A stretch of 33,287 bases of DNA from Elusimicrobiota bacterium. Lineage in GTDB: Bacteria; Elusimicrobiota; Elusimicrobia; F11. Position numbers: made by a program. The DNA lies in the NCBI GenBank assembly GCA_046153645.1, contig JBJXGI010000093.1, positions 1 through 33,287 on the forward strand, read 5' to 3'. Positions 3,001-6,000 of the stretch are shown one piece after another (position 1 is the stretch's first letter; every line of letters starts with the position of its first letter).

Positions 3001-6000
3001 ATTTTAAATGAATCAAAATTGCTCATAAGTAATGATTCGGGGGCCATGCATGTCATGGCGGCTTTACAAAAACCGCAGATTGCACTTTTTGGTTCAACCT
3101 CTCCTGTTTGGACAGGACCCTTAAATAAAAATGCTGAAATTATTTATTTAGGATTGGAATGTTCTCCTTGTTTTAAACGTGTTTGTCCACTAACACATAC
3201 CAATTGCCTAAATCAGATTTCAGTAGAGATGGTCTTAAATAAAATTAAAAAATATATTTCATGAATTCAAAATCGATAGCAGTTGTCTTTAGAGATTTAA
3301 AACCTATGACGGGCACTTTTACGATCGTCAAAAATGTATTCCCGTTATTGCGAAAAAAAGGATGGGAGATTCATCTCGTCTGTCACAAAACAGATACCGA
3401 ATATTTTAAAAAAATGGGTGTCCATGTTCATAATGTTCCATTTATAAACATTGGCAAATCGGCTCGTCGCTGGTTGTTTGATAAATTGTGCCGTTTAAAA
3501 ATATCTAAAATTAAACCTCAAATTGTTTGGGGGCATGGGGACATTCTCAAGCAAGACATTCTTAGTTTGCACAATTGCGTTCATAAAACATTTGAGTTAA
3601 CGCGTCCAAATGAAAAATTAAAAGAGCAGGGAATGTATGGTTTTCATCGAAAATTATTGGAGAGACAAAATTTTAAACTATTGTTAGCAAATTCGAATTT
3701 GATGAGAAAAGAAGTGGAGGCACGCTTCGATGTTCCTTCATCAAAAATAAAAGTGGTTTATCCTGGCATTGATATCGATCGGATTTCTCAAAACTACACG
3801 ATCATTGAAAAAAATAAAGCCCAAAAAGAATTGGGGCTCCAGTCAGATAAAATTTATTTAGGTTTTGTTACTTCAGGAGATTTTAAAAAACGAGGATTGG
3901 ACCGGCTTATAGATATTCTTCAATCACTCAGTTTAGAAGTAAAAAAACAAGTAGGTGCTTTTGTGGTAGGAAAAGATAAAGAAACGCTTTTTTATCTTGA
4001 AAAAGGGAAAAAGTGTCAGCTCGAAGGCGATTTTTTCATATTTCAACCGAGAGAGTCTCCCCAAATTTTTTATGACGCGCTAGATTTGTTCGTCTACCCT
4101 GCCTATTTTGAAGAATTTGGTTTAGCCCCCTTAGAGGCCGCCGCCAATGGTTTGCCAGTCATCACAACCTGTTTTGTCGGAGCTTCCGAGTTATTGCGCG
4201 ATCATTCTCAGTCCGTGTTATTTCCAGAATACGATTTACTGTCGTTTAAACAGGAAATCGAAAAGAAAATTGAATCTAAAGCTTTTTCCAGAACCACGAG
4301 AGCACAATTCCTGCCTGACGGGCAAGGATACGCAAAGGAAGTGTTGGAACTTTGTGAGTCCTTTATAAGATAAGTCGACTTTATTTATTTTCCGATAACC
4401 ATTTTATACACGGCACTACACGAATTTTAACCCCTTTTTCCTTGATCGATTCTTCAGTATCCATAGTTATGATGGTGAGGTTGGATACGTTTAATTCCAT
4501 AGATGCTTGATGTAATGCGCGTAGTTCTCTCTCACGTGTTTTTAAAGCCGAAAGGTTTTGTGTCACTTGAATGAGTTCAAGATTCTTTGACCCTTGTCTT
4601 AGAAAAAAGTCCACTTCGTTACCAGTGCGTGTTTGATAATAAAAAAGATCAAAATTAGGCTTAAATCCTCGTCGCACCAGTTCGACAAAGACCATGTTTT
4701 CAAGTAAACGAGAGTCGTTAGATGTAACAGATTGATATGTGGCAGAAATAAACCCATTGTCATAAGCGTAAATTTTTCGATCAGCTTTCAATCGCATTCT
4801 CGTTTTGAGAAAATTTTACAAGTAATTTACTTCTTCTTAAGGCGGAATTAAGCTCCCCATTTTATAATTGAGAGCATGTTAAGAATAATTTATAAACAGA
4901 GAAAACAGCTTATGCGTTCTCGTTTAAATTCGAATTGTTTTATAAGAGTGTTTTTGTCAGTTGTTTTTCTTCTTACCCAAGTTTTATTTGCCCATAGTGC
5001 TGAAACAAGCATTTGGGCTGAAAGAAGAAAAGCTTTGCCAAGTGCCGCTATGACTTTCTTGCCGCCTTTAGGTCAGGTTTGGAAAGATAAAACTCAAGGA
5101 AGCGACGACCACAGAAAAAAATCTTTTTCAGCTTTACTTCCTTTCGGTACCATTCAGAAAATTCAAAACCCCATCCAAAAACCCCAAGGGACGGTTATTT
5201 ATATTCAAGATGTTCATGGCCATCTTGAAGCGCAAAAAAACATTTCTCAAATAATTCTTAAAATTTGGGAACAACACCCCAGCGCTCACCTCGGTTTAGA
5301 AGGGGCAGAAGGGCGCTTTTCGACGGAATCATATAGGCAATTTTCTCCAGATATGAATAAAAAGATGGGGTCATTTTTATTTAATGAGAACTTAATCACA
5401 GGAGCTGAATATGCCGGTTTTGTCACTCCGGAAAATCCAACGATTATTGGAGTGGAAGATGCCAAGTCGTATCTTGAAAATGTCGCAGCGATTAAAAAAG
5501 CGCTCCCTTTGCAAAACGAAGAATTGAAAGTAATAGATCTAGAAAAAAATATCCTGGGTATTCAAAAAGAAAAAGTTTACTCACCCCAACTTTTAGAACT
5601 CGATCAGAAATGGGAAAGCTATCAAAATGGAAATTTAAGTATTGGTGATTATTTAACGGCCCTCACCCTAACCCTCTCCGAGGGGATAATAGAAATTGGT
5701 GTCCCTTCTCCCTTTAGGGAGAGGGTTAGGGTGAGGGTGCCAGAGTCTATCTCTCTTTTCCTCAAAACTTGGCAATTAGAAAAAACTCTTAATTTTGAAA
5801 AAGCAGAACGCGAACGAAATCAGTTTTTATCCCAGTTGGTTGAAAAATTAAATAAATCAGATTTTGATTTTTTAATGGCCCAAAGCCAATTGCTTCGTAT
5901 GGGTGAGATGGCTTACCCTGATTATTACGCCTGGCTTAAAAAAATGGCTTTGGATCATGGGGTTTCTCTGAACCGAACGCCTGAGTTCGATAAATATATT

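Follow-up and report, generated by a model that had tools for sequence, protein, structure and literature searches.

A conserved promoter of a known kind in a new use: giant-protein genes of the Elusimicrobiota order F11, with likely OmpR-family activation, leaderless starts and two opposed layouts

Introduction

What switches on the genes for giant membrane proteins, and do many such genes scattered over one genome answer to the same signal? Giant membrane proteins are frequent in Elusimicrobiota, as described in the available parts of West-Roberts et al. (10.1101/2023.11.21.568195). The main text of that study, as far as it was available, contains no mention of 'promoter', 'expression' or 'sigma'. 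We found no literature on promoters or regulons of these giant genes in a search that mostly did not extend to subscription papers. The giant genes of Elusimicrobiota and Omnitrophota take a large share of the genome, and a promoter makes their timing assayable.

The question arises at a locus in the window, a stretch of 33,287 nucleotides from an Elusimicrobiota bacterium of order F11 (GCA_046153645.1, contig JBJXGI010000093.1). An earlier note had reported a four-box promoter element here and proposed that the same element joins the giant genes of the order into one regulon. We therefore asked what kind of promoter this is, which proteins could read it, and whether the genes behind it form one regulon.

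Results

The element lies where it had been reported. By sequence inspection, the boxes occupy positions 4815-4853 of the window, followed by a -10 hexamer at 4863-4868 and an ATG at 4876. Written with its original spacers, TTACA-N6-TTACT-N5-TTAA-N7-TTAA spans 4816-4851, and the in-frame ATG begins 7 nt past the TATAAT. The reported feature ended at 4912, which is the second ATG; the context of the closest paralogue is kept up to the first. The features are:

4381..4797, minus strand: divergent DUF4143 gene fragment, 138 aa, beside the element
4815..4820, plus strand: box 1, Y type, TTTACA; upstream half of the putative distal dimer site
4826..4831, plus strand: box 2, Y type, TTTACT; 11 bp after box 1
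4837..4842, plus strand: box 3, X type, TTAAGG; 11 bp after box 2, overlapping the -35 hexamer position
4848..4853, plus strand: box 4, X type, TTAAGC; 11 bp after box 3, starting 15 bp ahead of the -10
4863..4868, plus strand: sigma-70 -10 hexamer, TATAAT, at the fixed offset
4876..4878, plus strand: start codon, 7 nt after the -10, no Shine-Dalgarno; putative leaderless start
4876..10401, plus strand: head-family giant protein gene, 1,841 aa, with a signal-peptide-like start and a conserved head domain

Nothing indicates that the element serves the neighbouring DUF4143 fragment. The 1,841-aa giant has no Pfam match, and no family is named for its head domain by Pfam, NCBIfam or Atlas. A structure model of this 575-aa domain (pLDDT 82, without the last strand of the domain) gave no informative match with Foldseek and VIA-align. 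With the first 450 residues of the giant we found 47 relatives in genome G000, 44 of them with usable upstream DNA.

De novo Gibbs sampling of these 44 upstream regions recovered the motif in 8 of 8 runs, at 21.1 bits as against 11.6-11.7 bits for four shuffled sets. Our own matrix had 28 matches in G000 at ≥18 bits; the reversed matrix had one and four column-shuffled matrices had 0-1. A second matrix was built solely from 32 sites of relatives and applied to about 2,130 crude gene calls of G000. It gave 28 matches at ≥12 bits (reversed, 0) and 24 at ≥20 bits, and 21 of the 24 precede head-family genes (of the 44 with upstream DNA). The other three precede a 6,623-aa giant, a PorV-like gene and a TPR gene. 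The claim that the element stands before head-family giants and seldom elsewhere is thus borne out. The same holds for its presence throughout the order: all 12 F11 genomes carry it, with 7-16 exact sites each (control 0), and 25 of the 28 distinct relatives' sites that came with loci precede a head-family protein.

The four boxes were correctly identified, but their spacing of 11-10-11 was not; in register it is 11-11-11. Read this way, four hexamers follow a strict 11-bp period, KTTACA twice (Y boxes) and then TTAAK twice (X boxes), and the -10 begins 15 bp downstream of the start of box 4. With only the proximal pair and the -10 fixed, and a neutral KTWA upstream, we found TAnnnT at the fixed offset at 131 sites in 14 of 16 genomes (control 0). 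Counted by eye, the upstream pairs at these sites are YY 110, XX 11, YX 9 and XY 1. Pairing is therefore homotypic (Fisher p 6e-10, over sites that include kin and orthologues and are not independent). If transcription starts about 7 nt past the -10, the Y pair covers about -60 to -44; the X pair covers -38 to -22 and overlaps the -35 position.

Could the element be a passive remnant, copied along with the genes as they were duplicated? Across 20 promoters, identity is 0.84 in box columns, 0.38 in spacers and 0.26 in upstream DNA. The somewhat greater likeness of spacers than of upstream DNA speaks for copying, and a six-box form found in one paralogue subclade of G000 and hardly in relatives (below) fits it as well. 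However, the boxes are kept although mean identity among the head proteins is 28%, and over the 20 promoters spacer and protein identity are unrelated (rho 0.02). Moreover, genes of other kinds have the element upstream as well, namely the 6,623-aa giant, PorV-like genes, a LacI-like gene and a kinase gene. These results support the view that the box array is maintained by selection and not merely inherited. Passive copying is largely refuted by the box-specific conservation, and we give it hardly any weight.

The fixed -10 and the mostly leaderless starts that had been proposed are supported, as far as sequence can tell. Of 41 head genes, 26 have an in-frame ATG or GTG at 5-8 nt past the -10, and not one of the 26 shows a Shine-Dalgarno sequence; for 17 of the 41, which have six boxes or X boxes only, the -10 was allowed a 1-nt shift, which inflates that part of the count. 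Among the 24 motif-anchored genes the proportion is 17 of 24. Three head genes with 32-37-nt leaders do carry a Shine-Dalgarno sequence. Other operon heads have leaderless spacing in 85 of 592 cases, a slight excess over the 57-73 in three control windows. Shine-Dalgarno-like words peak at the usual distance in G000, and the 16S 3' end was not found there with short motifs. Most of the head-family giant genes are probably translated from leaderless starts.

The promoters fall into more than one layout. Layout A, Y-Y-X-X, stands before most head-family giants, the 6,623-aa giant, the PorV-like gene and the TPR gene. A second class of sites had been described at a distance of about -85. This class exists, and we now read it as a six-box layout B, a Y pair with up to four weaker X boxes. 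This layout belongs mostly to G000, where it clusters in one paralogue subclade. We rejected it as a conserved class: the strict six-box pattern has 3 sites in G000 and 1 across 15 relatives (2 of 16 genomes), and the one outside G000 lies at a pst locus.

In layout C an X array comes first, and behind it a Y pair forms part of the -10/+1 region. This third layout had been overlooked in the earlier reading. All 12 genomes of the order carry it, with 25 sites and none in the control (in G000, one on contig C79 near 12,435-12,500), and it heads orthologues of the 8,730-aa Fn3/FG-GAP giant and PorV-family barrels. At 14 relatives' sites the second box, on which the search did not select, scores X in 14 of 14; all 14 also have Y boxes at both positions over the -10 and retain the final T of that hexamer. 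One site, seen by eye, precedes an alkaline-phosphatase-like gene in G002. Over the whole genome collection, 19 of 27 stretches with layout C come from Elusimicrobia and 8 are single matches in other taxa. We found no clear case in 5 genomes of families f4 and f10, outside the order.

These layouts bear on the idea of a single regulon. In the cyanobacterial regulators RpaA and RpaB, sites across the -10/+1 region repress and upstream sites activate, so layouts A and C should respond in opposite ways to whatever reads the Y boxes. By this analogy we predict that they are expressed reciprocally. Because layout C puts its Y pair on -10/+1, the proposal of one regulon is not supported as stated; the conserved layout C predicts opposite control. 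The use of these boxes in layout C before adhesin and secretion genes suggests an on/off switch from one cell-surface programme to the other.

The element is not confined to the order. The strict pattern occurs in 3 of 199 sampled genomes outside the family. By eye, Y-Y-X forms lie upstream of head genes in at least 6 of 14 regions in G133 and in 7 of 13 in G178. A Y-Y-TTKAAG variant occurs at 21 sites in G121 and at 21 in G208, and another variant, with TTTACA-type boxes at positions 1, 2 and 4, at 6 sites in G015; in both variants the -10 keeps the same offset. The variant-pattern search is blind to CTTAAG boxes, so its zeros for f4 carry no meaning. No such element was seen in 20 upstream regions from G128, G159, G026 and G074.

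We then compared the element with promoters of other phyla. The exact 54-bp layout-A pattern retrieved at least 118 stretches from the genome collection. Among the matches listed, 112 downstream frames could be considered: 31 are head-family, and 65 of the other 81 were scanned. Of these 65, 44 belong to phosphate-regulon families: 26 PstS, 10 PstC, and one each of PhoU, Ppk, Ppx, alkaline phosphatase, glycerophosphodiesterase, 5'-nucleotidase, PhnG and Na/Pi transporter. Among the 80 listed matches that have titles, these phosphate sites come mostly from Bacillota and Fusobacteriota. Therefore, the element has the PHO-box promoter anatomy of Bacillota and Fusobacteriota. Judged by its sequence, the promoter type is already known, and its purpose, the giant genes, is new.

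The earlier claim that the element is distinct from the Pho box consequently holds only locally. The order's own pst promoters (in G000, on contig C33 near 15,940) do use other boxes, GTCAY-GTCAY-TTTA; compared with Bacillota and Fusobacteriota, the 54-bp anatomy is the same. A few hybrid GTCAC-TTTAC sites occur. Does this make the giants a phosphate-starvation regulon, read by the pst-linked PhoB-like regulator (C33 type, below) or by a co-opted PhoP? The identical anatomy before pstS, pstC, phoU, ppk and phosphatase genes elsewhere favors that idea. A matrix from the 44 phosphate sites has 13 matches in G000, all of them giant-gene promoters (reversed, 0). The hybrid sites, the phosphatase-like layout-C site in G002 and the grouping of the G213 and G214 regulators with the C33 clade point the same way. 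However, that matrix retrieves no pst promoter, and in G000 the sites do not precede phosphate-acquisition genes. Giant-gene boxes also differ from the Bacillota type at several positions: box 1 opens with G in 15 of 31 giant-gene sites but in 0 of 44 Bacillota-type sites, and box 3 continues with G in 23 of 31 as against T in 43 of 44. Finally, the HAMP-HisKA kinases of the candidate regulators C79 and C6 score below the PhoR and PnpS cut-offs. A Virgibacillus kinase passes PnpS. We consider the phosphate explanation improbable.

Which regulator, then, could read the boxes? G000 encodes six OmpR-family regulators, four of them conserved across the order. The C33-type regulator is located among pst genes with GTCAY boxes. 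The C79-type and C6-type regulators each occur in 10 of the 11 other genomes of the order and in 4 of 4 f4 genomes, and both co-occur with element sites; f10 has sister clades of the two (SH-aLRT 94 and 96). Their genes each sit behind a HAMP-HisKA kinase, which in the C6 type has a Cache domain. These two OmpR-family proteins, encoded in G000 on contigs C79 and C6, are the best candidate regulators of the element. Two genes had been put forward before, g00070 and g00413. The first stays a candidate and, going by gene order, appears to be the C6 regulator. The second is probably the C20 regulator, again by gene order, and was not found in the four element-bearing f4 genomes. The C79 regulator, absent from that list, is at least as good a candidate. 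We rejected the C20 type: it is present in 11 of 11 relatives (88-95% identity), yet is not one of the PF00486 matches of the four f4 genomes. The C20-type gene has a GRCAAA array of its own upstream. A record of Ca. Obscuribacterium magneticum carries an 85%-identical regulator.

Gene neighbourhood links each candidate to one box type. Of the 11 genomes with a C79-type gene, 6 have layout C at most 5 kb behind it, and in the remaining 5 the contig breaks off first. Two of the 4 f4 genomes (G071 and G113) carry the element in front of the C79-type kinase gene, and all 5 f4/f10 genomes fetched have Y pairs no more than about 2 kb from the C6-type regulator. Near the C6-type gene, no Y pair was found in the 3 order relatives fetched, nor by eye upstream in G000, and the C79 operon has no element in front of it in any of the 5 relatives fetched. 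Family f10 has a changed recognition helix in the C79-type regulator and a changed X box, with Y unchanged, a single event. The C79-type helix has VHIRHLR in common with RpaA. This match is weak, because regulators located next to phosphate genes with the same boxes have His (Virgibacillus), Lys (Cetobacterium) or Thr (G213/G214) in the helix.

Some genomes fit the pair of candidates less well. G005 (87% complete) has layouts A and C and no C79-type match, and G009 (94% complete) has both layouts and no C6-type match. G015 and G020 have related four-box promoters and neither regulator clade. The single OmpR-family regulators of the pattern-bearing G213 and G214 group with the C33 clade (SH-aLRT 94). 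The candidates do not group with Virgibacillus PhoP in a tree whose deep branches are weak.

Discussion

We propose that the element is an OmpR-family activator promoter with reciprocal layouts. This core, which is common to readings with one or two regulators, we hold with good confidence. In this mechanism, phosphorylated OmpR/PhoB-family dimers would bind head-to-tail on the 11-bp repeats of an activator-dependent sigma-70 promoter. The proximal pair would stand in for the -35 element and recruit RNA polymerase, and transcription would start at or beside the ATG. We infer binding, activation and start site from the arrangement of the sequence.

The reading we put first is a PHO-box-type activator promoter on which two paralogous two-component systems read the two box types; it is a plausible reading that we would put just short of an even chance. 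The C79-type regulator would read the X (TTAA) boxes and activate at -35. The C6-type regulator would read the Y (KTTACA) pairs; it would aid activation from about -60 to -44 in layout A and block the promoter from the -10/+1 pair in layout C. Layout A would then need both regulators and layout C would need X without Y, and the two gene sets would alternate.

Two box types need not mean two proteins. In Bacillota and Fusobacteriota the Y-Y-X-X order stands before phosphate genes, which are known to be under one PhoP-type regulator. A single PhoP-like protein, of C79 or C6 type, might likewise read all boxes through a loose TTWACA-like consensus, with variants that tune affinity. Reciprocal control of layouts A and C would then follow from regulator level, as for OmpR at ompF and ompC, or from position, as for RpaA. 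The shared Y-Y-X-X order, the single 11-bp register of all boxes, the TTTACA-type boxes at positions 1, 2 and 4 in G015 and the 10 mixed pairs among 131 are consistent with one reader. So are G005 and G009, each lacking one of the candidates, and RpaA alone both activates and represses (PMC12916501, in the part available). However, pairs are strongly homotypic, and the two paralogues are co-conserved, each flanked by one box type. Moreover, a single protein for which Y was the better site would shut layout C before it could activate from the X array. We regard a single reader as a possibility to be taken seriously, but a doubtful one, and place two regulators ahead of it mainly because of layout C and the gene neighbourhood.

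A reader from outside the OmpR family, such as an alternative sigma factor, a nucleoid protein or a DNA bend, would have some material to work with. Besides the 587-aa sigma factor there are four further free-standing ones, three giants contain sigma domains, and the X pairs are also palindromic. However, the -10 has the plain form TAnnnT, PHO-box promoters elsewhere share this anatomy, and the element adjoins response-regulator genes. GG-N10-GC spacing at some sites raised the possibility of a sigma-54 promoter, which we rejected: the core-binding domain PF04963 has no match in G000 (99.7% complete) and was found in 4 of 14 genomes as a control. A non-OmpR reader is as improbable as the phosphate explanation.

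What would two opposed layouts mean for the cell? One outcome of the two-regulator reading is a switch in which about 40 giant membrane-protein genes sit behind an AND gate and a T9SS-like programme of adhesins and barrels behind an AND-NOT gate. We think it rather unlikely that the switch holds in this full form. If it did, the cell would alternate between an attachment state and a giant-making state. An uncultured lineage would have built a life-stage master circuit, like CtrA or RpaA/RpaB in its logic, from PHO-box grammar. The promoter is defined, two candidate regulators can be named along with their kinases, and an opposite gene set is predicted; together these open the way to culture-free assays. 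PHO-box anatomy, moreover, need not mark a phosphate gene, a point that matters for regulon prediction in genomes from metagenomes.

How does this promoter compare with known systems? The B. subtilis PHO-box consensus consists of four TT(A/T/C)ACA repeats. The PHO-box promoter of Bacillota and Fusobacteriota and the F11 element share four hexamers at an 11-bp period, TTTACA twice and then the TTAA type twice, with the -10 at an identical offset, and one exact 54-bp pattern retrieves both. They differ in their targets, which in F11 are giant membrane proteins and secretion genes and not phosphate genes, in the flanks of the boxes and in the mostly leaderless starts. F11 also keeps a distinct Pho box, of GTCAY type, together with a dedicated pst-linked regulator. 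PHO boxes are described as 11-nt direct-repeat units in the available part of PMC4415409.

Cyanobacterial RpaA and RpaB, known to us from excerpts of PMC12916501, PMC13421787 and PMC6525291, offer the closest parallel for two OmpR-family paralogues on shared promoters. RpaA binds TAAA-N7-TTAA, which resembles X, and activates from -58 to -36 but represses from -16 to +2 (PMC12916501). RpaB binds KTTACAWW repeats, whose half-site KTTACA equals Y; its activating sites span -66 to -45 and its repressing sites cross the start (PMC13421787, PMC6525291), with a repressing position from -38 to +23 (PMC13421787). In contrast to the 11-bp period of Y, however, the period of HLR1 is 10 bp, and RpaA and RpaB compete for sites. 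A fixed cooperative Y-Y-X-X array is not described in those excerpts. The candidates score 155-176 bits against an RpaB cut-off of 330 and thus fall outside the RpaB/HLR1 class.

Caulobacter CtrA promoters share the X pair: the consensus TTAA-N7-TTAA lies at -35 (PMC11264516, in the part available). We detected no CtrA orthologue among the 4 of 6 regulators scanned, of which C79, C20 and C6 score 134-151 bits against a cut-off of 350. CtrA too drives a surface and life-stage programme, but from promoters without a fixed upstream Y pair.

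Features within the giant genes and their arrangement

Sigma-70 region 2 and region 4 domains lie within the protein chain of some giants that carry the conserved head domain (head-family giants; contigs C31, C15 and C71 of the source genome, G000), and one such protein of 2,471 aa has three region-2 matches. The giant gene of the window has a palindromic repeat (5659-5738; about -56 kcal/mol) inserted in frame within its head domain, and the arms of this repeat are found again on at least nine other contigs. Head-family giants also occur as back-to-back pairs, in which each gene has its own four-box element.

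G000 C31, 7,197-14,609 (L290): giant with internal sigma-70 domains
G000 C71, near 9,790-9,940; C98, near 5,400 and 6,100; L014/L026: back-to-back giant pairs

Other upstream layouts

In a different class of the same phylum (genomes G128, G159, G026 and G074), a strong hairpin with a T-tract lies 5' of head-family genes. A short hydrophobic ORF is also found 5' of these genes in G128 and G074, with a common L-P-R-G-x-I-D-like motif. The layout as a whole is attenuator-like and takes the place of the four-box promoter.

G128 L186, L188-L190, L192-L194: hairpin and T-tract upstream regions
G159 L197-L199; G026 L201-L202; G074 L205: hairpin and T-tract upstream regions

Conserved GRCAAA boxes about 11 bp apart precede the gene for the near-invariant C20-type regulator, an OmpR-family protein, and are followed by a TTGAT...CATATA promoter. 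A permease gene and amtB-glnK diverge from this array and promoter in G000. The GRCAAA array likely marks a second small regulon.

G000 C20, about 51,250-51,330 (L005): GRCAAA array
L062, L065, L078, L079, L081, L085, L086, L089, L090: further GRCAAA arrays

The four-box pattern (Y-Y-X-X; Y = KTTACA, X = TTAAK) is also carried by the Omnitrophota records L411, L424 and L433, 5' of exported-protein genes, and by L459, where the protein start resembles that of a giant protein. On the minus strand of G000 C99, some 14 kb from the end of the contig, a 67-aa gene has a lone Y pair 146 nt 5' of it; by eye, the gene product looks like an Flp-type pilin. At a pstS gene with GTCAY Pho boxes (L490/L548; G003 C15 near 69,400-69,500), another Y pair sits immediately 5' of those boxes, a possible link between the giant-gene and Pho regulons.

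Other loci in the window, and rpoN

A perfect CIRCE operator (30451-30477) precedes hrcA-grpE-dnaK and is ordinary. A search of G000, a 99.7% complete genome, found no rpoN (PF04963: 0 matches), yet the C79 operon retains an NtrC-like sigma-54 activator domain. The lptB ... ptsN-hprK-rapZ cluster (17553-23533) contains AAA/DUF4143, Fic and RRM genes in the place that rpoN usually occupies.
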